Positions 2,735-64,000 of a DNA stretch of 64,000 nucleotides are shown piece by piece. This DNA comes from Octopus vulgaris (Eukaryota). The stretch covers positions 43,586,001-43,650,000 of the forward strand of contig OX597835.1 of the NCBI GenBank assembly GCA_951406725.2, written 5' to 3'. How positions within the stretch are numbered: the first letter of the stretch is position 1; each line of letters opens with the position of its first letter. The notes under the pieces are model-generated. The model was not told where the DNA came from and searched no databases. It saw only the letters and a program-made list of their open reading frames with translations. A program made the position numbers and the translations under genes.

Positions 2735-3140
2735 CTTTTTATTCTTTTATTTGTTTCAGTCATTTGACTGCGGCCATGCTGGAGCACCATCTTTAATCGA
2801 GCAACTCGACCCCGGGACTTATTCTTTGTAAGCCCAGTACTTATTCTATCGGTCTGTTTTGCCGAACCGCTAAGTGACGGGGACGTAAACACACCAGCAT
2901 CGGTTGTCAAGCAATGCTAGGGGGACAAACACAGACACAGAAACACACACACGCATATATACATATGCATATATACGACGGGCTTCTTTCAGTTTCCCTC
3001 TACCAAATCCACTCACAAGGCTTTGGTCAACCCGAGGCTATAGCAGAAGACACTTGCCCAAGGTGCCACGCAGTGGGACTGAACCCAGAACCATGTGGTT
3101 GGTAAGCAAGCTACTTACCACACAGCCACTCCTGCGCCTA
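2735..3140 (-). mobile_element. SINE family A (tRNA-like head, internal microsatellite, AAAGAGT tail), full-length copy
   Basis: A/B-box-like head ggctgtgtggtaag...ggttcagtccc; more than 25 full or partial copies in the window. Confidence 0.9.
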
Positions 3141-3983: not shown

Positions 3984-5055
3984 AGGGGCTTTTTTCAGTT
4001 TCTGTCTACGAAATCCTCTCACGAGGCTTTGGTCGCCCCAAGGCTGTAGTAGACAGTTGCACAAGGTGCCATGCAGTGGGACTGAACCCGGAACCATGTG
4101 GTTGTATGTAATATAATGTTTCTGTAATTTGTCCCCAACATTCGTTATAAGTTACAAGGATGTAACTTAGCGGTCCGATAATTAGACCGATTGAATAAAA
4201 AGCAGACTTTATTAACAAAATAACTACTCGGGTTAATTTGTCCGAGTAAAAAAAGTCCTCAAGGCGTTGCCCCAGCATGGCCGCATCAAAATCTGAAGTC
4301 GTGCAGAGCTGAATGTAAACCAATGACTTAACGTTGGTCGCCTTTCTATTTATAACTATGGTGTAACAGGACAGCCTCTACATGGTCACTGAGCATACTA
4401 GAAATAGCAGCCAAATCTTACTCAAACCACAGCGGGCCGTCTGAGAAAACGAACATTCGCTAATTAGGTCAGTGTTTAACTATTACTGGGAAATAGCAAA
4501 CAGTGGTCATAGCTGGAATGTCTTTCAGCATAGACAAATCTGCTCATGAAAACTTGAACAGCTATTAAGTTTTCCGACGTAAGGGAAATAAATCTTCCAC
4601 TGAGTGATTAGAGTTACTTCCCTTGTGTTAAAAAAAAAAGCAAGTAAATGTAATTAGTATTAGTGGACATTAGTAGTCGTTAGTAGTTACCAGTTACTTT
4701 TTGGATCATTACATTTTTGATGGTGAGAGTGATAAGGGAGTGCCCGTAACGCGATGCAGAACAAATAGATCGTTTGTGCAGTCACTGATTTTCGGTTTTC
4801 ACGATTTCTTTTCGTTTTGCACACAGCTATGCAAACATTTAACTGATAATTTACAAATTACTATTTTAATTAAAATTCTTTTATTCACAAATTATTTCAA
4901 AAACAAAAGAAATAACTGAATTTAATAATCATAATAAAAAGACCATTAAAAGTGTTCCTGAGTGCATCTCATGCTATTTTATAGAAAACATTTCTAATTT
5001 TCGTTTTTGGATTTGGTTTGCAAGATTCTTTATATGAGTTCGTGTGTTGAAGCAT

Positions 5056-5341
5056 ATTCTGTTGTGTCTGGGGAGAGTCATTCACTTTTAGTGCCTTATT
5101 ATTTAACACACTAACCGGTAAAATTTCCACTTATTTCTTATTTTTATTTTCCTAAAATTTTTGTTGTGTCTTGCAACCTTTTCAATAGTCTTGACTTTTG
5201 ACTCAAAACTATTGAAAAGGTTGCAAGACGCAACAAAAATTTTAGGAAAATAAAAATAAGAAATAAGTGGAAATTTTATCGGTGAGTGTGTTAAATAATA
5301 AGGCACTAAAAGTGAATGACTCTCCCCAGACACAACAGAAT
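5056..5341. repeat. Long near-perfect palindrome (~133 bp arms)
   Basis: 5056-5189 is the reverse complement of 5208-5341; a second copy lies at 27838-28126. Confidence 0.92.
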
Positions 5342-13958: not shown

Positions 13959-14157
13959 TGAAAGAAATTGGGGATAGCAACAACAACGAAATGTTATTTT
14001 CTATTTAGTAAAAATCAAATTTTTTTAAAGAATATTTACAAAAGTATATTTAATTTTTTTTTTTAAACAAGGTATTCTCCACATGATTGCTCAACCTGCT
14101 AGAAATAGCAACCAATTCTCTATGATTTTGTGAAGGTTTTATACTGTGAGAACAACA

Positions 14158-14587
14158 ATGGAAACCCAGGTCGAAGATTCTCCTTGCCTCCCTCAAAACA
14201 GCCCCACTTGTGAAATCGATGAAAAAGACAGCCCTTACTACTTTGAATCTGACCATACTGCCCTCAGGTGTAACCCTGATTACTGCAACCTTCTCAAGGC
14301 GCTCTGCCGGCTCGAATCGCAGCGGATAAAGGCCATTCAGGACATTGACCAACTTTATAAGTGCCAAGAATCAGCTCTTAAGGATCCGATTGCATTTGTT
14401 GAACAGCTGCAGCGCGGTGAAGACTTGAACTTCCCGAAGCGGCAAACGGTCGCCGAAATCCCTGTGATAAACTGGGAGGCTTACACTTCCAAAAAAGACA
14501 TCGCTGCCTACTGTACCTCAAGACACATGACCCGCAAGAAGAGACCGGGCCCAAGCATCAGTTGTCTACAAGGCAGCAGTTATATGG
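14158..14587 (+). CDS. ZZZ3: ZZ-type zinc finger-containing protein 3, coding exon 1
   Basis: METQ...YYFESDHTALRCNPDYCNLLKALCRLESQRIKAIQDIDQL...DPIAFVEQLQ resembles the conserved ZZZ3 FESDH-ALK-N-DY block; ends G|GTAAGT (phase 1). The start codon is inferred; an upstream non-coding exon is likely. Confidence 0.9.
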
Positions 14588-14866
14588 GTAAGTAATAATT
14601 TCTCTCTATATAACTATAGTTGCAGACATGGCTTGCTTCTCGAACACGTGGTTCTAGGTTCAGATCCACTGCTTGGCACCTTGAGCAAGTGTCTTCTATT
14701 ATAGCTTTGAGTCTTGTGAGTGGATTTGGTAGATGGAAATTGAAATAAACCCGTTGCATATATATGTGTGTATGTGTCTTTTTGTCTCCCACCACTGCTG
14801 TTGGTTTGTTTACGTTGCTGTAACTTAACAGTTCAGAAAAGAGGCCAATAGAGTAAGTACTAAGCT

Positions 14867-15069
14867 TTAACCCTTTAGCATTTAAACCGGCCATATCCGG
14901 CCTTTTTTATGTTCAAACTGGCCATATCTAGTCTCTCACACCAACCCTACAATATCGTTTTTAAAATTAACAGCTGCCTCATCAAAATCTCAATGCATGA
15001 TTAGTTCGAAACAATGTGGATAAAAAAGTATTAATTTTGGCAGAATAATGTGAACACTAAAGGGTTTAA
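14867..15069. mobile_element. TTAA MITE (piggyBac-like) inserted into a SINE
   Basis: ttaaccctttagc...ctaaagggtttaa. Other family members near 24726, 28630-28993, 34600-34708, 51700-51851 and 57010-57354. Confidence 0.75.
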
Positions 15070-15279
15070 AAAAAAAAGTCCTGGGGTTGATTTTTGCAAC
15101 TCCTTCAAGGTGTTGCCCCAGCATGGCCACAATCAAATGATTGAAAGAAGGAAATGATAGAAGGTAACTTGTGTAGCTAAGAAGCTCACATACATACATA
15201 TGTCCACAGCTACATGCCATACATACATCCATATATATGTATGTAAACCCATTTAAATACACGTTGGCAGTCCATCAGT

Positions 15280-15911
15280 TACATTCTGAGTTCAAATTCT
15301 GCCAAGGTCAGTATTGCCTCTCAACCTTTCGGGGTTGATAAATTAAGTACCAGTGAAAGACTGGTGGGGGGTCAATGTATTCAACTAGGGCCCATGTCCT
15401 TCTTGCAAGTTTCAGGCCTTGTGCCTTTAATAGAAAGGATTCTTATTATTATTAAGGTGGTGACAAGGCAGGGAGCTGGGGAAATCTTGAGCCAGACAAA
15501 ATGGTTTTCCTTCTGTCTTCACGTTTCTGAGTTCAGGTTCTACCAAGGTTGATTTTGCTCTTCTTCCTTTCAGGGTCGATAAAATAAGTATCGTTTGAAC
15601 ACCGATGGGGGGGCATTGTAATCGACCACTCCCTGACCCCTGTTAAATTTCAGGCCCTGTGCTTTGCAGCCTTTCATCCATCCTTACATTCTGAGTTCAA
15701 ATTCTGCTGGCAGAGTCGTTAGCATGCTGAGCAAAATGCTTAGCAGTAGTTTGCCTGTCGCTATGTTCTGAGTTCAAATTCCACTGTGGTTGACTTTGTC
15801 TTTCATCCTTTAAGGGTCGATAAATTAAGTACCAGTTGCATACTGGGGTCGATCTAATTGACTAATCCCCTCCCACAAAAATTGCTGCCTTTATGGCAAA
15901 AATTTGAAAGC

Positions 15912-15945
<34 letters not shown>

Positions 15946-16322
15946 GCTTGCCAGACGAAATGCTTGGCGGTAATTCACCCATCACTATGTTCTGAGTTCA
16001 AATTCCACAGTGGTTGACTCTGCCTTTCATCCCTTTGGGTTCGATAAATTAAAGTACCAGTAAAACATTGGGGTCGATGTAATCGACTAGTACCCCTCCC
16101 AAATTTCAGGCCTTGTGCCCATATCAGAAAGGATTATCATTATGGCAGTGAGCGGCAGAATGCTTTGTACCCTTTCAGCTAGCTTTATGTTCTGAGTTCA
16201 AACTCCACTGAGATTGGTTTTGCCTTGAATCCTTTTGGAGTCAATATAATAAGAACCAATTGAACACTGGGGTTCATGTAATCAACTGATTCCCTGCCCT
16301 GAAACTGCCAAAATTTGAAAGC
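15280..16322 (+). mobile_element. Tandem cluster of about five SINE family B copies separated by (TTA)n
   Basis: Repeated ttctgagttcaaattc...gactttgcctttcatcctttcggggtcgataaattaagtacc core. Other copies at 1250-1580, 26330-26510, 44620-45275, 58835-59115, 60598-60805 and 61242-61458. Confidence 0.85.
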
Positions 16323-18482: not shown

Positions 18483-18774
18483 CATGCATATATTTGTGTC
18501 TGTGTTTTCCCCACTGCCACTTAACCGATGTTAGTTTGTTTACACCTCCATAACTTAGCAGTTCAGCCAAAAGAATGATAGAACAAGTTTACAAGGAAAA
18601 ATAAGTCCTGGGTTGAATTTATTGGACTAAAACCCTTCAGGGCAGTGCTCCAGCATGGCAGCAGTCCAACGTCTGAAACAAGTTTAAGAAGAGGAAGCAA
18701 CAACATGACCGTATCCAGTTTTGAAGTTGCGTAAGGATGAAGTTTTAAATGGCATTTATTCTCTATTTTCCAAG

Positions 18775-18871
18775 GTTGGAAGAACTTTTGGTAAAACACC
18801 CACCTGAAGAAATCGAGTCTCGGCGCTGGCAGAAAATTGCTGCTGCTTTGGGCAACAGGACAACACAACAA
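18775..18871 (+). CDS. ZZZ3: ZZZ3 coding exon 3 (SANT/Myb)
   Basis: ttccaag|G; [32 protein letters not shown]; donor GTATGT. Confidence 0.93.
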
Positions 18872-19692
18872 GTATGTATTAATTTTTGAATCTGGAAACA
18901 GCAAAAGCTTCAGACAAAATTCCTTTCTGTTTGGCTCTCACCTTGTGAAATTTTAAAATTAAGTGAAAATTTTCAAATTTGGTATATTGATGTAATTTTT
19001 CATGCTGTGTTGTTATTTGCTTGTTCCAGAAATATATTAGTAAAATGTTACAGAGGTTTAAAGTTTGGTTAAAAATAAATAATAATAATGAAATTATTGT
19101 ATACAGTGCTCAGGTGCACCACAACTTGTCAGAAAGTGCGTATAAAGTGTATGCAGTAATGTACAAATGTCTGGAAAGCGAACAATGTACGAGTCAGATA
19201 CATGTTTGTATGTGTATGGAGGGGAGAAAATCAGGTGTAGTGTTGGCGGATTTTTACCCAATTAGAAGACAGGATTTGGAAGCTTTTTTTTTCTCATTTT
19301 GCAAGGCATGGAAATAACAGAAAAAGGAAAAAACCTCAATGACATTTTCTTTATTTTTGTGAAAAATTACAAAAAGAAAAGAAATGAATTTCATTTCCTT
19401 AATTAGCTTACAAAACTACATCAATACACCAAATTTCAAATCAACTGGCACAAAATTAAAACTAAATCGATTGGAACAAAATTAAAAGACTTGAAAAGTG
19501 TGAGCCAAACAGGAAAGGTCCCAGGGCAGTTTTTATCTTCTGATTTAGTGCTGGGGTTACATTTTGCTTTTCATACTTGCGTGGTCAATAAAGTAAAATA
19601 CCCTTCAAATATTGAGGTCGGGATAATTGATTAAACCCTTTCCTCAAATCTGTGAACCTGTGTCTGTTAGAAATCATTTTCGTTATTAATTA

Positions 19693-22867: not shown

Positions 22868-24132
22868 TCAGGTCATCCCATAAGTTCTATCCGATTTTAC
22901 CTTTTTTAAATTTTAATGAAATTTAATAGTATTTTGCAATGTCTAATGGAATTAAAAATTATTTTTATGCATTTGTGTACATTTAAACTAATTAAATATT
23001 AATTTACAGAATAATAGAATTAAAATTTCTTTGATTAAAACCCCTTTCTATCATGGAAGTATCCAAAGAGCATTTCAGGCACATAATGCTTTATGAGTAC
23101 AAAAAAGGAAACTCTGCAGCCGAAGCGACACAAAACATACACTCAGTTTATGGGAAAGAATGCTTGAATGAAAGAACTTGCAGAAGATGGTTTGCAAAAT
23201 TCAGAAGTGGAGATTTAAGCCTTCAAGATGAAGATCGAACAGAACGTTCAGTTGAGTTTGATGATAAGGTCCTTGAGGCATTACTTCAAGAAAATCCTGC
23301 ATTATCAGTTGAAGAATTAGCAATAAAGTTTAGTTCAAACCATACAACTATTCATCGTCATCTTCAACAACTTGGAAAGGTTCCTAAACTTGGAAAATGA
23401 GTGCTTCATGAATTGTCCAAAAGCAACCGCAAATCCTGAGTTGACATTTGCTCTTCTCTCCATTCTCACGAACTCATTTCACCCTCTTTGGATAGACTTG
23501 TGACAGGTGGCGTAAAATGGATCTTCTATCGAAATGTTAAACGTCGTAAACAGTTGCTTGGTAAAAGGGAAAAACTCAACCTCAATTGAGATGGGAACTT
23601 CATGGAAAAAAGGTTCTTCTCTCTATCTGATGGGATTGCAAGGGAGTAATTCACTTCGAATTGTTACCACTTAATGCAACAATCAATGCTCAAGTCTACT
23701 GTCAGCAATTAGAGCGTTTGAACCAAGCTTTGAATTAAAAAAAAGAGCCGCTTTAGTGAATTGAAAAGGAGTGATGTTTTACCAGGACAATGCATGACCC
23801 CACACTGCAAAGATCACATCACAGAAGATCGAAGGGCTTGGTTGGAAAAAATTCCTCATCCACCTTATTCTCCCAACCTTGCTCCTTCAGACTACCATTT
23901 GTTTCGTAGTTTACAGAATCATTTGGGGAACATAACTTTCGCAAGCCAGGAGGAGGTCGAAACTGACATTTGAGAGTTTTACATTGATGGGATTAAAAAG
24001 CTTGTAAATAGATGGAAGGAAGTCATAGATAATCAGGGAAAGTACATTGATGATTAAATTTCAATTAAATATAACATTTGATCACTTGTTTTCTTTATTC
24101 AAAATTCGGACAGAACTTATAGGATGACCTGA
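22868..24132 (+). mobile_element. Full-length decayed mariner (DD34D-type) transposon in ZZZ3 intron 5
   Basis: TIRs TCAGGTCATCC.ATAAGTTCT.TCCGA at both ends, TA flanks; transposase MEVSKEHFRHIMLYEY...RRWFAKFRSGD...PHPPYSPNLAPSDYHLF with stops and frameshifts. Confidence 0.95.
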
Positions 24133-25380: not shown

Positions 25381-25773
25381 TACTCTTTTACTCTTTTACT
25401 TGTTTTAGTCATTTTGACTGAGGCCATGCTGGAGCACCGCCTTTAATTGAGCAACTCGACCCTGGGACTTATTCTTTTGTAAGCCCAGTACTTATTCTAT
25501 CGGTCTCTTGCTGAACCGCTAAGTAACGGAGACATAAACACACCAGCATCGGTTGTCAAGCAATGCTAGAGGGACAAACACAAACACACACATACATATA
25601 TATATATGTGATGGGCTTCTTTCAGTTTCCATCAACCAAATCCACTCACAAGGCATTGGTTGGCCCTGGGCTATATTAGAAGACACTTGCCCAAGATGCC
25701 ACGCAGTGGGACTGAACCCAGAACCATGTGGTTGGTAAGCAAGCTACTTACCACACAGCCACTCCTGGGCCTA
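25381..25773 (-). mobile_element. SINE family A, tail about 10 nt from the ZZZ3 exon 6 donor
   Basis: Full-length reverse copy. Confidence 0.9.
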
Positions 25774-28189
25774 TTGTTTTTAATCAATCATGGATTATCT
25801 CATAGCTTTGCAATTTCAATGATGTGATTGTTAAGCTTTAGGATGACATTGTAGATTAGGTGTAAGTGGCCTGATCTGGTCAGTTTGAATGTAAATTAGA
25901 TAAGAATATTTGGGTCAGATATGGCCATAAAGATCATAAAAAGCACCCACTACACTGACGGAGTGGTTGGCGTTAGGAAGGGCATCCAGCCATAGAAACA
26001 CTGCCAGATCAGACTGGGCCTGGTGCAGCCTTCTGGTTTCCCAGACCCGGGTCGAACCGTCCAACCCATGCTAGCATGGAGAAAGGACGTTAAATGATGA
26101 TGGTGATGATGATGATGATGGCCAGTTTGAATGCCAATGGGTTAAATTATTACTATCATTTGGGTTGGTCGATTCATTAGAACAGCTTTTCCGCAGAATG
26201 CTAGGGATCCACGAAAGGTTCCTAGGGGTTCCGCAAGAAAGAGTGAGATAAACTAATGCTAATTCCATGATTGTAATTCTTACTATACCTGCACAAAATA
26301 TTATTGGTTATTGTAATATTGTGACATACTTTTCTACTCTAGGCACAAGGCTTGAAATTTTGGGGGAGGGAGCCAGTTGATTAGGTTGACCCAAGTATGC
26401 AACTGGTACTTAATTTATTGACCCCAAAATGATGAAAGGCAAAGTCAACCTCGGTGGAATTTGAACTCAGAATGTAGCAGTAGCCGAAATATCTATTTCT
26501 TTACTACCCACAAAGAGACTGGTAGAATAAGTACTAGGCTTAAAACGAATAAGTCGATTTGTTTGACTAAAGGCGGTGCTCCAGCATGGCCACAGTCAAA
26601 TGACTGAAACAAGTAAAAGAATGAAAGAATATATGGCAGGCATTGTTTTTTACTTGGGACTCATTGTAAGTCATCAATTATCATCATCAATCTTACCGTG
26701 TAAGGTATGTCCTCCCTCATCACCATAGCAACCATGGACCCCATTGTCATCATGGCAACAAATTTGTGCCTTTACATGCTGCCCCATAAAAAGATTTCTT
26801 TTGTAGTTTTAGTCTGAGGTGGGAGTGAGCAAAGGTTTCCTTCTTGAGTCATGCTGACTCCTAAGGGCCAGTTTCCCAGTTTCCATGGCGTATATATTCC
26901 CCACCTGGATGGGACACTAGTCCCTTGCAGGATTAACTCACTTTTGCCAGTTGAGTGGACTGGAGTAACGTGAAAATGAAGTGTTTTGCTCAAGAACACA
27001 ATGCATTGCCCGGCTCAGGAATTGAAACCACAATCTTTTGATCAGGAGTCCAGCACCCTGACCACTAAGCCATGCTCCTCCACCAGGAGTGAATTCAATT
27101 CCCTTAATGGTTTGAAGGATAAGAGAGGAAATCACCCTCAGCCTGGATCCCAGAATTGAAATCCTTTACACAAAATAAGACTCCCCTGAGAAATGGGAAC
27201 CCATCAGAAGGATCATTTCTGTTCTTCACTGGCTGACTTAACCCTGCTGGTACCAACCTCACTCAGGCTACCCTTGCTTCTGTCTCACTATATTCCTGTT
27301 TTATTGTAGTCTAAATTAAATCCTTCCCTAAAAATGCCTTCAACCTTTCTCTTTCCATTATTTCATTGAAATAAACTGGTTTTGTTTCAGTGAATTTTGA
27401 AAATAAGGAATTTAGGAAAATGCATTTAATTTAAGCAGACCAAGTGCGGATCTGAGTAGAATATGGGAACTGGGTTTTAAGGAAGGATACGAAAATAATA
27501 GGTTTATTAACCCCATAATTCACTCTATAATTGCTCAAGGACATATAGCCTAGTGTTTAAGAGCGTGGGCTACTAACCCCAAGATTCTGGGTTCAATCCC
27601 AGGCAGTGGTTTGGATAATATTTTACATTATTTACATTTGATGGTTATTTGTCCTCATCTTGTTTGTTGTTAACACAAAGTTTCGGCTGATATGCCCTCC
27701 AGCATTTGAGGTCACGCTGTGCAAAAACTAAAAAAAAAAAGTCCAAGGGCATATGGCTTAGTGGTTAAGAGCGCGGGCTATTAACCCCAAGATTCCAGGT
27801 TCAATTCCAAGCACCTGAATAATAATAATAATAATAATTTTGTTTTTGGATTTGGTTTGCAAGATTCTTTATATGAGTTCGTGTGTTGAAGCATATACTG
27901 TTGTGTCTGGGGAGAGTCATTTTCTTTTAGTGCCTTATAATATAACACACTCACCGGTAAAATTTCCACTTATTTCTTATTTTTACTTTCCTAAAATTTT
28001 TGTTGCGTCTTGCAACCTTTTCAATGAAAAAAAATTAAAAATAAGAAATAAGTGGAAATTTTACCGGTGAGTGTGTTAAATAATAAGGCACTAAAAGAGA
28101 ATGACTCTCTCCAGACACAACAGAATAATAATAATAATGATATTGAAAAATACCTTAGGAATGAGAACCCAGGTTTGAAATTTCCCCAA

Positions 28190-28236
28190 GATACCTGATG
28201 AAGGCCTGGAGGGTATATCAGTCGAAATGTTGTGTT
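28190..28236 (+). ncRNA. Minimal type I hammerhead ribozyme motif, copy 1
   Basis: GATAC-CTGATGA-A-GGCCTG..CAGTC-GAA-ATGT-T-GTGTT: stems I and II pair, core intact. Confidence 0.7.
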
Positions 28237-28436
28237 AACAACAAGCAAGATGAGGACAAATATCTGTCAAATGTAAATAATGTTCATAATTCCTCATCTC
28301 TTAAATATAGAACTCATCATCATCATCATCATCATCGTTTAGCGTCCAATAATAATAATAATATCAGCAACAAACCTTAGGAATGAGAACTGTACTCTGT
28401 TAGCCATGTGAAGGGTTGGGTTCAAAATTCCAGCAG

Positions 28437-28482
28437 GACACCTGATGAAGGCTGGAGAATACATCAGTCGAAATGTTGTGGT
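28437..28482 (+). ncRNA. Minimal type I hammerhead ribozyme motif, copy 2
   Basis: GACAC-CTGATGA-A-GGCTG..CAGTC-GAA-ATGT-T-GTGGT. Confidence 0.7.
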
Positions 28483-29273
28483 AACAACAAACAAGGTGAG
28501 GACACCTATCTGCCCATTGCAAATAATGTACCTTAAACTCAAATTTTGAATATAAATCTAATACAAAATTTTGATGCAAAGTTTAATTTAGCTGACTTTG
28601 CTCCTTCATCATTCAGAAGACTTTGTTGAATGTAAGACTAATTTATTCATATTGTTTTGAAATAATCATGCATTATCTCGTGGCTTTGAGATTTTCATGA
28701 GGTGATTGTTTATTTCTATACAGTAATATCTTGACTATCGTGGGTGTTCTGTTCCAAAACCTCCCACAGAAATAATTAAAATCTAAAAAAATATAAATAC
28801 CCATCGGCTGGAGAAACCCACGATATACTGAGGAGTCCGCAGTATAAATTTACATATATGTACTGAGTGCGTGATAGGTGAATTGCGATGTGATTGTTTA
28901 TTTCTATAATGACATTGTAGGGTAGGTGTGAGAGGTCACATATGGTCAGTGTGAACATAAAATAGGGAGAACAGTTGGATTGGATATGACTGGTTTAACG
29001 GCTAAAGGGTTAAAACAGGAAATTTTTTTATCATAGACCCAGGGGCAGGGTCTGGCAGTTTGGTATCAAAAAATATTATGATGACAGTTATATTAGTAAA
29101 TTCTTGTGTAATTTCGAAATTATCTGAAACAGTGTGTTTCAAGAAGAATATGGTAAATAAAGGCTTCATTCATCCGTGGCTCTACACGGACTGTGTCTGC
29201 TTCTGACAGACTCCTCTCCCCAGAATAAGCAATTCTAGTAAAATTCTTTTTGTGGTTCTTCTCTTCTTTCTAG

Positions 29274-29371
29274 TGTATCAACTGTCGCAGGATTCTTACA
29301 AATCGATGGCATTGTATTGATTGCCAGGAGCAGGGCTTATCGATTGATTTGTGTCAAGTTTGTATCGAAAG
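29274..29371 (+). CDS. ZZZ3: ZZZ3 coding exon 7 (ZZ zinc finger)
   Basis: tttctag acceptor; CINCRRILTNRWHCIDCQEQGLSIDLCQVCIE has ZZ Cys spacing; donor AG|GTAAGT. Confidence 0.92.
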
Positions 29372-29525: not shown

Positions 29526-29826
29526 GGGTGCTTTTACATGGCGTTGCACGGGCACTTTTACTTGATGTCACATGTGCACTCTTAGGTAATTCCACATGGG
29601 CACTCTTACATGATGCCACATGGGCACCCACACATGATGCCACATGAGGACTTTTACATGGCGTTGCATTGGTGCTTTTACATAATGTCACACGGGCACT
29701 TTTACTTGATACCACGTGGACACTCTTAAGTAATTCCACATGGGAGCGTTTATGTGATGCCACATTAGGACTTTTACATGGAACCACACATGGCACTGCA
29801 TGGGTGCTTTTACGTGGCACTGCCAC
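29526..29826. repeat. 24 bp minisatellite, about 12 degenerate units
   Basis: Consensus close to gggcact(t/c)ttacatgatgccacat, embedded in a family D copy. Confidence 0.85.
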
Positions 29827-37744: not shown

Positions 37745-39095
37745 GGAATTTCAAAAAGTGTCAGGTACTAATTACCAAAGAACCAACGAGAAACACTAGT
37801 ACATTCAGGTAGATGGCCCTGCTCGATCTGTAGAAAAGGCGTAGGTAGAAACTCATTAAGATGCACCAAGTGTAAGCTATGGACACATAAGAGGTGCAGC
37901 AATGTCAAAGGAAGGCTAACTAGGAAGATGGTTTTTGTATGTGGCAGATGCTCGGGAGCAATAAACACTGAAAATGCTCAGAGAACAACTTCCGCCACAT
38001 TACAGGGAGAAAACCTAGAAGTAGTTGATAGCTTCTGTTACCTAGGTGCACTGAAAGTGTAGCTGCTAGAATAAGAATAGCCTGGGCTAAGTTCAGAGAG
38101 CTCTTACCTCTGCTGGTGACAAAAGGCCTCCCGCTCAGAGTAAAAGGCAGACTGTATGATGCATATGTACGAACAGCCATGCTACATGGTAGTGAAACAT
38201 GGGCCGTGACTGCTGAGAACATGCGTAAGCTCGCAAGAAATGAAGCCAATATGCTCCGATGGATGTGTAATGTCAGTGTTCATACTCGACAGAGTGTAAG
38301 TACCTTGAGAGAAAAGTTGGACCTAAGAAGCATTAGTTGTGGTGTGCAAGAGAGATGTTTGCGCCGGTATGGTCATGTGACAAGAATGGATGAAGATAGT
38401 TGTGTGAAAAAGTGCCACACCTTAGTGGTTGAGGGAACCTGTGGAAGAGGTAGACCCAGGAAAACCTGGGACGAAGTGGTGAAGCATGACCTTTGAACTT
38501 TAAGTCTCACCGAGGAAATGACTAGAGACCGAGACCTATGGAAGTATGTTGTGCATGAGAAGACCCGGCAGGACAAGTGAGACCATAACCCATGGCCTCT
38601 ACCTGGGATGTAGCCAGTCCACCTATGCATACCTTTCCTTCTTGGGACACAAAACTACTTGTGAAGACCTGTTGAGGCAAGCGAGAATCAGAATCGAAAT
38701 CGACCAACATCAATGGAAATTGCAGCTGTGATATCAGTGCCGGTGGCATGTAAGCGAACCATCCGAACGTGGCCATTGCCAGCGCTCCTCCGATGGGCCT
38801 CCATGCCGGTGGCACGTAAAAAGCACCATTTGATCGTGGCCGTTGCCAGCCTCGCCTGGCTCCCGTGCCGGTGGCACATAAAAAGCATCATCCGACCGTG
38901 GCTGTTTGCCTGTGCCGGTGGCACATAAAAAGTACCCACTACACTCACGGAGTGGTTGGCGTTAGGAAGGGCATCCAACCGTAGAAACATTGCCAGATCA
39001 GACTGGGCCTGGTTCAGCCTTCTGGCTTCCCAGACCCCAGTTGAACCGTCCAACCCATGCTAGCATGGAAAGCGGACGCTAAATGATGATGATAT
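37745..39095 (+). mobile_element. 5'-truncated RTE-clade LINE: RT C-terminus, 3' UTR and (GAT)n tail
   Basis: WPCSICRKGVGRNS..C..C..W.HKRC zinc-finger-like segment; KGRLYDAYVRTAMLHGSETW...YGHVTRM...GRGRPRKTW; continuous with the dispersed 3' UTR repeat family. Confidence 0.92.
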
Positions 39096-51690: not shown

Positions 51691-52574
51691 CAGTGAAACA
51701 TCTTAGAGCTTTGAAGTTTCAATGGTGTGATAGTTTAATCTTAGAATGTCAATGTAGGTTAGGTGTTAGGGGTTAGATATGGCCAGTTTAAATGTAAAAG
51801 CATGTAGGATATTTGGGCTGGATATGGCCAGCTTAAGCATAAAAGGGTTAAGGGTCAATAAATTAAGTGCCAGTGAAACACCGGGGTCGATAGTTTATAT
51901 ATATATAATATAGATGCAAGTACAAGTGAGGATATAAACCTCAGAGGGATAAAAATATCCAAGATTAGACTGGTTGAATACCCAACAATATTGGCACCTT
52001 TAATGGTTTACTGTATTTTTTGTGTTTAATGTTAAATGCGATAAATTTCTTTGTACTTGGTGCTTTTTACATGCCCCTGGCACAAGTGCCAGTGATGAAT
52101 TGAAACAATTGTGGGTCTAGTCTTATTATATTATCTCTTGGTTTTATAATAATAATATATATATATATTGAAACCCCCTTCGGTCATGACTGACCGTGGG
52201 ATTGCACCTAGAAAGTTACCCTCCAAGGCACAAGTCCGGGCAAGGTTGTTTATGGAAGACCAGCAGTCGCCCCTGCATACCAGCCTCCCCTCTCCGTGCC
52301 ACTGATCTTACCCAAGGGAAAGGCAAAGGGGCCGATACAGCTTGGCATGAGTGACACCGCTACTCATTTCTACAGCTGAGTGACCTGGAGCAACATGAAA
52401 TAAAGTGTCTTGCTCAAGAACACAACACATCGTCTGATCCAGGAATTGAACTTGCAGTCTTGTGTTTGTGAATGCAATGCCCGAACCACTAAGCCATGTA
52501 CCATTATATATACATACACACACAAACACAGAGGTATATATATTTATATATTCCATTTCTTTTCTTTTTTGTAG

Positions 52575-53227
52575 ATGAAGCTGGTGGATATATTGAACTT
52601 GCTGTTCCCAAAGAAGAGGATTATTTTGGGGTCCATAAACTGGTTACCATTAAAAAGCTTTTCTCCAGTCGGGTTCACTTTGGCCACAAAAAGGGACTCC
52701 GTAATCCCTACATGCTTCCATACATTTATGGGAACCGGTTGGATGTTGACATCATTGACCTTGACAAGACGCTACCTTTGTTCCAGAATGCTTTAAATTT
52801 CACAGCCCACATAGCTTACCAGCAGGGCATCATTCTGTTCATGAGTCGTCACATACAGATGATGCCTATCATAGAACAGACGGCGAGAGAGTGTGGAGAA
52901 TATGCAAACTGCCGTGAATGGGGTGGTGGGATCTTTACCAATTCCAAAGTGATGTTTGGTGCCGTCACACGTTTGCCAGACCTTGTGATTTTTATTAGTA
53001 CTCTAAGCACGGTCTTTGAGCCACACACAGCCATCCGAGACAGTGCTAAAATGTGTATTCCTACAATTGGAATCGTTGACACTAACACAGATCCTCGACT
53101 CATCACATATCCTGTACCTGGGAATGATGACTCTCCAGCTTCCATAGAACTCTATCTTGACCTCTTCAAGTCTGCGATTCTAATTGGTAAAGAAAAACGG
53201 AAGCAGGACGAAAGTAAATTGGTGTAG
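52575..53227 (+). CDS. MRPS2: MRPS2 main exon (ribosomal protein uS2 domain)
   Basis: DYFGVHKLVTIKKLFSSRVHFGHK...DIIDLDKT...RLPDLVIF...IPTIGIVDTNTDPRLITYPVPGNDDS is the uS2 signature of the mitochondrial type. Confidence 0.96.
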
Positions 53228-60816: not shown

Positions 60817-60981
60817 GGTGTAGGAATCACTGTGTGGTAAGTAGTTTGTTTACTAACCACATGATTCCAGGTTCAGTCCCACTGCGTGGCACCTTGGGCA
60901 AGTGTCTTCTGCTATAGCCTCGGGCCAACCAAAGCCTTGTGAGTGGATTTGTTAGACAGAAACTGAAAGAAGCCCGTCGTA

Positions 60982-62329: not shown

Positions 62330-62935
62330 TCAATTTTTATTATTTTATTATTATTTTTTTCTGGTATTATGTCTTGAGTTCAAATCCCGCCAAAGGACTT
62401 TGCCTTTTATCCCTTATATGGTTTAGTTGAAGAAATGAGGGTTGATATAATCAATTAATCTCCCACCCTGACCCCACAAATTTCAGGCTTTGAGCCTATA
62501 TTAGAAAGGTTTGTTACTCGTATAATTTCTGACAGATCCATCCATGGCATTCTCCATCACATGCAACACATCATGGGACAGATTGCGAATAGATCTGGCT
62601 TTGGCAGGGGCAGACCACCAGTTTGGATCAGTCCAAGGTATTTGACAGGGTAGACCATCGCCATCTGGTGGCTGTCCTAAAATCTATCTTCAGAGGCTGC
62701 ATCACCGCAATGTAGAGTGGCATTTGTTTGGTGGTCAAATTAAAGAGCAACTTCTTGGAACCTTTCAGCATTGAATGTTTGGTCTTTGCTAAGAATGCAA
62801 TTTTTTTAGTTGAAGGAGATAACCAAAAAGTACTGAATTGTCGACCAAGTCTTGACTGTTGCAGAGATCCAAGATGAAGAATGATCTGATGAAGATTTCT
62901 GATCACCCTTTTGCATAGTTACATTGCATAATTAA

Positions 62936-64000
62936 TGGCATGGCTGTGTGGTAAGAAGCTTGCTTCCTAACCACATGGCTCTGGGTTCAATCCCACTGCA
63001 TAGCATCTTGGGCAAGTGTCTTCTACTATACCTTCAGGCTGATCAAAGCCTTGTGAGCGGATTTGGAAGACGGAAACTGAAAGAAGCCTGTCGTATATTA
63101 TATATACATGCATATGCTATGTGTGTTTCTCCCCCCACCATCGCTTGACAACTGGTGTTGGTGTATTTACGTCCACGTAACGTAGCAGTACAGCAAAAGA
63201 CACTGATAGAATAAGTTCCTGACTTTAAAAAAAAAGGGTCCTATGGTCGATTATTCGACTAAAACCCTTCAAAGTGGGGCTCCAGTATGGTCGCAGTCAA
63301 AGGACTGAAACAAGTCAAAAACAAAAGATGTTTCTAATTAAAATACCTGTAAATTAACAGAATATTTTCCCCTCTACGTAGCAAACATGTTTTTTTTTAA
63401 AATTAAAGTGTTTTTATTCCTACCCTTAAGTAAAAAAGAAATAAATAAAATAAAAAAAGGGGAAAAAGCCTGTCGTATATATGTATATATATATATGTGT
63501 GTGTGTGTGTGTTTGTGTCTGTGTTTGTCCCCCTAGCATTGCTTGACAACCGATGCTGGTGTGTTTACGTCGCCGTCACTTAGCGGTTCGGCAAAACAGA
63601 CCGATAGAATAAGTACTGGGCTTACAAAGAATAAGTCCCGGGGTCGATTTGATCGACTAAAGGCGGTGCTCCAGCATGGCCGCAGTCAAATGACTGAAAC
63701 AAGTAAAAGAGTAAAAGAGTAAAGAGTAATACTTTGTTTTAGGGATTTCATGTAAACTATATTCATACACAAACCTCATTATACCGAAATTTCAATTAAT
63801 TATAAAGCTGAGCCTTCCAATCACAGTTTCGGATTCAGTCCCAGAGAATGGCACCTTGGGCAAGTGTCTTCTACTTTCGCCCTGGGCACCGATCAAAGCC
63901 TTGTGAGTGGACTTGGGTAGCTGAAGAAGGAAAGCAGCTCGTTACACACAGACTGTCTGTCTCCGATAATCTGCGTTTGTTTATGTCCCCGTAACTTAGA
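62936..64000 (+). mobile_element. Three further SINE A copies or fragments
   Basis: 62936-63325, 63468-63728 and 63810-64000. Confidence 0.8.

Follow-up and report, generated by a model that had tools for sequence, protein, structure and literature searches.

Introduction

Penelope-like elements (PLEs) of the Penelope/Poseidon group, as portrayed in the accounts of PAc of Anolis (PMC11167929) and of PLEs with minimal hammerhead ribozymes (PMC4209133), have much in common with the octopus repeat described here: a single frame with a reverse transcriptase (RT) plus a GIY-YIG domain at its C-terminus, a pseudo-LTR (pLTR) whose minimal type I hammerhead has one additional base ahead of stem II and a stem III that is palindromic, an overlap of pLTR and frame, inverted 5' arms, a tail of ~30 nt and AT-rich targets. 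In PAc, as in the octopus element, the frame overlaps the hammerhead (PMC11167929). According to the parts of this literature that bear on insertion, inverted 5' arms and a tail of 30-40 nt are PLE hallmarks (PMC8557442), and two RT start sites found in vitro have a spacing equal to the length of the PLE tail (PMC11167929); minimal PLE hammerheads are described as needing dimers and as cleaving poorly in vitro (PMC4209133). Unlike these PLEs as described, the octopus element has a tRNA-derived segment with A and B boxes, followed by (AAT)n, in its 3' UTR, and about 80% of the copies that reach this segment begin there.

Sm-alpha and Sj-alpha of Schistosoma (PMC6765202, PMC2770079) share with the octopus repeat a tRNA-derived Pol III-type promoter followed by a hammerhead, and a high copy number. 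As described there, the hammerhead of Sm-alpha is canonical and active, cleavage releases the repeat from multimers and no autonomous partner is named, whereas the octopus hammerhead is minimal and the partner is the very element that contains the head. The tRNA-headed SINEs paired with LINEs in SINEBase (PMC3531059) are likewise short and have a 3' part in common with a coding element. SINE partners in the definitions outlined there are LINEs, whereas the octopus partner is a PLE, the head lies within that partner, there is no separate lineage, and inverted arms take the place of a simple tail. A small-RNA-derived Pol III promoter in a terminal region, probably acquired when a SINE or tRNA inserted, is a further likeness, to Cassandra, Helenus, Ajax and TRIMp3 (PMC10886601); all of these are, on that account, non-autonomous LTR elements, and the promoter is not expected in their autonomous partners, whereas in octopus the coding element carries it. 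Among the systems covered by these partial accounts, Sm-alpha is the nearest hammerhead SINE, and Cassandra, Helenus and Ajax are the nearest case of a Pol III promoter in retroelement repeats. Animal non-LTR retrozymes, presented as PLE derivatives in the available portions of PMC7229834 and 10.64898/2026.07.22.740005, resemble the octopus family in their PLE-derived short hammerhead repeats, and the octopus family likewise has head-less tandems of ~285 nt, but at the locus analysed here probably no single unit is repeated in tandem, and single or head-to-head copies make up most of the family.

Octopus repeat surveys report PLEs and many unclassified SINEs, and the portions available draw no link between them (PMC13282606; PMC8967140). 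The accessible text of PMC6685494, PMC4758252 and PMC3531059 makes no mention of a tRNA-headed PLE. Nor did any title or opening of an abstract among the papers listed by literature searches describe one; the repeat databases Repbase and Dfam, and the supplements of PMC13282606 and PMC8557442, may already contain the family. What stands out here is one surprising feature at the level of the family, the start of most copies at a tRNA-derived segment; the hammerhead itself is an ordinary PLE hammerhead, and the tandem at this locus is probably accidental.

Results

A decayed hammerhead locus in a host intron

We analysed a 64,000-nt stretch of the Octopus vulgaris genome (contig OX597835.1, positions 43,586,001 to 43,650,000), hereafter the window. 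The features on which the original prediction was built are all present in the sequence: two tRNA-like segments (27539-27612 and 27747-27817, 86% alike), a split (AAT)n, two hammerhead cores and an inverted, truncated body. The CTGATGA...GAAA cores lie at 28195 and 28442, and the predicted GUU triplets end, as had been stated, at 28231 and 28477, a spacing of 246 nt. At the gathering level, Rfam together with ARAGORN reported no hammerhead family and no tRNA gene in the window, the two heads scoring 22 and 16.6 bits against a tRNA cut-off of 29, and no hammerhead model matched the window at E<=10. Rfam matches to miRNA families in the window were spurious, being caused by a palindromic MITE.

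The hammerheads had been placed on the sense strand of a host intron, and this was borne out. A Myb/SANT exon (18749-18886, + strand; Pfam, below cut-off) and, downstream of the repeat-bearing intron, a ZZ-finger exon (29275-29371, + strand; Pfam ZZ, E 0.004, below cut-off) flank the repeat, so both hammerheads are intronic and sense. From this pair of domains we take the host gene to be ZZZ3. A 24-bp minisatellite (29531-29781) lies just beyond the ZZ exon.

The family sequence extends further upstream than the first head, which had been regarded as a 5' end: it runs another 106 nt, to 27432. The interval 27432-27538 (+ strand; profile A, positions -106 to 81) comprises the tail of a PLE RT/GIY-YIG frame and a spacer of ~30 nt, and loci related to it translate to a GIY-YIG C-terminus; judged from its sequence, it is a 5'-truncated older copy of a subfamily that we call B. 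It continues into tRNA-derived segment 1 (27539-27612, + strand), which has A- and B-box remnants, scores the 22 bits given above and carries subfamily B marks at three of three positions. An inverted 5' arm follows on the minus strand (27621-27706; profile B, positions 64 to 149) that has subfamily A letters at its three readable marks and stops at a short 3' end, body position 149. The direct arm of this subfamily A insertion starts with tRNA-derived segment 2 (27741-27817, + strand; profile A, positions -6 to 75; 16.6 bits), its 5' end lying at about -6 to +1, where +1 is 27747. The (AAT)n spacer that comes next (27818-27838, + strand, by tandem repeat finder) is split by an unrelated palindromic, MITE-like insertion (27880-28125, self-inverted) and resumes beyond it (28124-28142). 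Elements of this palindromic type are 250-300 nt long; a second copy lies in the window at 5041-5340, and matches were found in or near 3 of 29 other loci.

Body 1 (28141-28315, + strand; profile B, positions 4 to 177) corresponds to the PLE pLTR plus the 5' end of the PLE coding frame. It stops at a long 3' end, body position 177, and its frame resembles the N-terminus of the homolog P0003. Within it lies minimal type I hammerhead 1 (28190-28236, + strand, predicted cut after 28231), with a 1-nt insertion in stem II and a CpG-decayed stem III. A (TCA)n stub, probably from another repeat, separates the two bodies (28314-28347). The last part, (AAT)n plus body 2 (28348-28558, + strand; profile B, positions 10 to 175), has four of four subfamily B marks and contains minimal type I hammerhead 2 (28437-28482, + strand, predicted cut after 28477), with a CpG-decayed stem III and a weaker stem I.

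Several other features were observed in the window. A 244-aa open frame with a Ribosomal_S2 domain (52493-53224, + strand, E 2.7e-43) is either an exon of a neighbouring gene or a retrocopy; remnants of a Mariner/Mos1-type transposase lie at 23035-23970 (+ strand, HTH_48, E 2e-24), and a PHD-like zinc-finger frame, probably LINE-derived, at 37772-38062 (+ strand). Another abundant family of repeats with tRNA boxes occurs at 25620-25770 (- strand), 60820-60970 and 62935-63080 (both + strand) and near 3100, 48400 and 55500; it resembles the head only in the B-box region. Two more CTGATGA...CGAAA motifs, at 2067 (+ strand) and 1862 (- strand), lie ~200 nt apart on opposite strands and are possibly the inverted pLTR pair of another PLE family.

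The repeat is the 3' part of a Penelope-like element

We searched 2.8 Gb of genome in 227 contigs. A 20-mer from the body had 11,919 exact matches and its reversed control had none, so the repeat is not a product of chance. Scaled by exact-match rates, the family comprises an estimated ~34,000 body arms and 14,000-16,000 heads, with ~2,100 copies extending a short way past the head on its upstream side. A genome-wide link between head, (AAT)n and hammerhead body had been expected, and a collinear body was present in 37 of 40 loci chosen by the head motif. Family copies are ~5% diverged. The hammerhead core columns are present across 144 bodies, and conservation is all that the stems show; outside CpG sites, the free N7 is the core position that varies most.

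The search for a PLE sharing the body, suggested with the original prediction, was successful. Upstream of the head, family sequence translates to RT and GIY-YIG motifs, with a stop ~30 nt before the tRNA-like +1. The head stood behind such a frame in 18 of 20 loci chosen by protein, and in 16 of 20 further loci drawn from 150 matches of a distant homolog. Two near-full-length copies (L202 and L206) have body, frame and 3' part in order, with a body on both sides of the frame. The body doubles as the beginning of the frame: translated, it runs on into an N-terminal domain, and the product is similar to the 847-aa homolog P0003 at the latter's N-terminus. The layout of the element is accordingly a pLTR with hammerhead overlapping the frame start, RT, GIY-YIG, stop, tRNA-like segment, (AAT)n and pLTR.

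No intact PLE frame was found among 150 scored matches, the longest being 569 aa. This copy matches RVT_1 weakly (E 2.7e-6, below cut-off). Its homologs number 2,989 of the 7,999 scored, and some of these carry RVT_1 and GIY-YIG annotation. Pfam GIY-YIG had no match to the family's own C-terminus; it does match the homolog P0069 above cut-off. As a control we looked for a sister PLE family lacking the head, and the 20 inspected of the 150 matches of the distant homolog all belonged to the same family.

Thus the element has a single frame with RT and C-terminal GIY-YIG, a minimal type I hammerhead in the pLTR, inverted 5' arms and a tail, and by all features examined in its sequence the repeat is a PLE, with head, (AAT)n and hammerhead body forming its 3' UTR and pLTR. 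From the domain order and motifs we assume that it belongs to Penelope/Poseidon. The hammerhead had been likened to those of PLEs, and it is indeed of the minimal PLE type. The repeat had also been read as a separate, non-autonomous retroelement, which is wrong because the head is fixed within the 3' UTR of a coding PLE (the 18 of 20 and 16 of 20 loci above). At one further locus (L285, ~590-930) a fragment that resembles small-subunit rRNA is inserted in a body copy.

Two subfamilies probably account for the apparent tandem

Head and body marks define two subfamilies and co-segregate in 77 pairs: 72 are A/A, 4 are B/B and 1 is discordant (p 4e-6). In the window, head 1 carries 3/3 B marks and body 2 carries 4/4, against 0/4 in body 1 and 0/2 readable in head 2. 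These marks suggest that the target of a younger subfamily A insertion was probably the (AAT)n of an older subfamily B copy, and that body 2 likely belongs to this older copy, with its start at 27432, and was displaced from it. The MITE and the (TCA)n stub would have arrived after the nested insertion. Bodies 1 and 2 had been proposed to form a tandem with a 246-nt unit, but they differ in subfamily; nested insertion is the best explanation, and the 246-nt spacing would then be accidental. The candidate of a retrozyme tandem of one unit was rejected on the same grounds, together with the foreign sequence between the bodies.

Stem III is ATGT in this copy, as predicted, but it is not the family form: the majority has ACGT, from which ATGT and ACAT are CpG decay products. 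The computed self-duplex of stem III is +2.6 kcal/mol for the window version, compared with -1.7 kcal/mol for ACGU. Given a likely nested insertion of two subfamilies and a CpG-decayed stem III, regulated cleavage of ZZZ3 or release of a 246-nt circle is unlikely. Low-level cutting of the host intron may occur; nothing indicates a function.

Head-less tandems of ~285 nt, with one hammerhead per unit and a shared junction, exist elsewhere (L204:3807-4316, L212, L213, L215 and L220), most of them on one contig (C29). Each of their units joins the body to the initial ~115 nt of the frame after it, and they are better candidates for retrozymes or circles than the window locus. At 4 of 20 loci (L214, L221, L225 and L228, of which L221 and L228 are possibly duplicates) the sequence breaks off ~231 nt into the frame and returns either to the body or to position -6 of the head.

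Paired 3' ends fit two starts of reverse transcription

We sampled the first 100 listed body matches, all on contig C1, and after removal of 6 overlapping loci and 3 segmental duplicates obtained 81 insertions, of which 53 were inverted. At four loci on this contig (L135, L137, L138 and L139; 7.9-9.1 Mb) an identical two-armed insertion occurs several times, indicating segmental duplication. The 3' ends of the body form two groups separated by ~30 nt; of 50 classifiable head-to-head pairs, 46 combine one long and one short end, which fits the two RT start sites reported for the in vitro system in the available account (PMC11167929).

Beyond the hammerhead cut site the copies retain 55-85 nt, with 3' ends at two other positions. 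Templates were therefore uncut or re-ligated, and the proposal that the element is ribozyme-processed was unsupported.

Most copies begin at the tRNA-derived segment

The 5' end fell within -10 to +20 of the tRNA start in 73 of 92 sampled insertions that reach the head. Among the body-selected insertions this applied to 40 of the 52 that reach the head (30 of them in -10 to +5); 4 of the 52 stopped in the 3' part of the head and 8 extended further. In an independent head-selected set, in which L235 and L238 are possibly duplicates, 33 of 40 ended in the same interval and 7 of 40 passed -50. Both samples come from contig C1 and are biased to subfamily A. The stop rate per nt was 0.040 in -10 to +20, compared with 0.0014 in the 3' part of the head and 0.0028 upstream. 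Genome-wide, exact matches numbered 5,629 inside the head and 919 just upstream, with similar exact-match rates.

The 5' ends are sharply piled at about -7 to +5, within a spread of about 25 nt. A GCCC-AC-GGGC palindrome spans -6 to +4 and coincides with the peak, and many junctions are hairpins there. By hand count, non-inverted copies also end in -10 to +20 (17 of 25), and fold-back is therefore dispensable. If one arm is long, its partner stops in this interval in 2 of 12 cases, compared with 73 of 88 overall (hand tally; p about 1e-6). This correlation of arms speaks for the use of two templates, one a long PLE RNA and the other a short RNA with its start near +1; it would not do so if the first cDNA served as template for the second arm.

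The tRNA-derived segment as a candidate promoter

In the family majority, the A box lies at +8 to +18 and the B box at about +53 to +62, which keeps tRNA spacing. The cloverleaf is lost: acceptor and T stems are broken, ARAGORN at its default threshold recognised 0 of 106 heads, and folding of three heads gave no cloverleaf. Against two host tRNA-Arg genes, 42-49 of 74 letters were identical in most copies tested, compared with a mean of 36 and a maximum of 44 for shuffles, in a comparison that covered a subset of host tRNA types. The head thus appears tRNA-derived from its sequence, with a similarity to tRNA-Arg only modestly above shuffles and an uncertain source tRNA. It has SINE-type features, namely a tRNA-derived head with A and B boxes that forms the 5' end of copies.

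Over the 3' 1 kb, 11 of 12 aligned copies had no T4 terminator, a point in favour of Pol III transcription; T4 is also absent across the coding region, so its absence here is not specific. A Pol III terminator at the recurrent junctions ~231 nt into the frame was considered and rejected, there being no T4 at that point. Among copies, conservation of the A and B boxes did not exceed that of the remaining head. RNA-seq from a related organism (three runs and one contig set, on L206) gave equal coverage of the two strands and no accumulation of ends at +1 or the cut site; head depth was not above the depth at the end of the ORF, in libraries that are unstranded and on a divergent reference that limits mapping.

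We also looked for SINE variants private to short copies, comparing 96 short with 52 long arms. Three columns gave p<0.02 and none was private to short copies. Short and long copies share the same letters, and there is therefore no independent SINE lineage; a separate non-autonomous lineage was rejected for this reason and because the coding element contains the head.

Discussion

This PLE has a 3' UTR and pLTR with a tRNA-derived segment 30 nt past the stop, and most copies start at this segment. We propose that they probably do so because a Pol III transcript is copied back by the enzyme of the element itself. The A and B boxes of the head would drive Pol III to start near +1 and to read ~300 nt through head, (AAT)n and body, and the resulting short RNA would contain both RT start sites. 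The PLE protein would cut AT-rich DNA and prime from both cut strands, and the two priming events would yield a direct and an inverted arm, each halting at the RNA 5' end. In such monomer RNAs a dimer-dependent hammerhead would remain mostly uncut. Of the idea that the repeat is Pol III-headed, we would accordingly keep the head as probable promoter, on its boxes and the pile-up of 5' ends, and give up the separate element.

The same ends could arise in other ways. All copies might come from full-length PLE RNA, with RT stopping or snapping back at the palindrome at +1 and the tRNA segment a mere passenger, left by an old tRNA or SINE insertion in the source element. Hairpins centred at -2/-1 at many junctions and the lack of private variants in short copies agree with this, and inverted 5' arms are ordinary for PLEs in the available account (PMC8557442); a second arm copied from the first cDNA would even correlate arm lengths without a second RNA. 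But 17 of 25 non-inverted copies stop at the head start too, the partner arms of long copies pass that point in 10 of 12 cases, the stops lie at the far (5') side of a segment that folds weakly (z -0.6 to -1.3), and the differing 3' ends of the two arms favour two RNA-templated starts, so that we regard this reading as improbable, though it is the rival we take most seriously. Less probable still is an RNase P-type cut of long PLE RNA at the tRNA-like boundary, with the released 3' piece as template. It would account for a template that is short and begins near +1, which the arm correlation calls for, and the segment retains tRNA numbering; yet the acceptor and T stems are broken, ARAGORN recognised 0 of 106 heads, three folds gave no cloverleaf, and many ends lie at -2 to -7, upstream of where RNase P would cut. 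A Pol III start is, on balance, the simplest source of the short RNA near +1, and we favour it with some confidence.

The independent SINE or retrozyme of the original prediction, whose tandem hammerheads would release a 246-nt RNA or cut the host pre-mRNA, is very improbable. Both cores do keep the catalytic consensus and lie on the sense strand, and head-less ~285-nt hammerhead tandems of the family exist elsewhere (L204, L212, L215). Here, however, the bodies come from different subfamilies, a foreign (TCA)n stub occupies the spacer, the stem III self-duplex is weak (+2.6 vs -1.7 kcal/mol) and the head is part of a coding PLE; in a lizard PLE, moreover, the hammerhead is reported to be active only with protein, and insertion in vitro did not require the hammerhead (PMC11167929). 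Any claim about the host gene is also of small weight, concerning one decayed copy among roughly 34,000 arms.

The family provides a large natural record of PLE insertion, and its 46 of 50 long-plus-short pairs lend support, from the genome, to priming on two strands at the two RT start sites seen in vitro. Returning to the Pol III reading, we consider it slightly the better bet that the 3' UTR of a PLE acquired a tRNA-derived Pol III promoter, each insertion that includes this promoter being in effect a SINE mobilised by the PLE and built into its autonomous partner. If so, short copies would outnumber longer ones about six to one, and the family would offer a model for the origin of hammerhead SINEs of the Sm-alpha type. 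With a SINE head of its own, a PLE would be a further route by which SINEs are born and would link hammerhead SINEs such as Sm-alpha to PLEs, and part of the SINE annotation in the Octopus vulgaris genome may be PLE ends.
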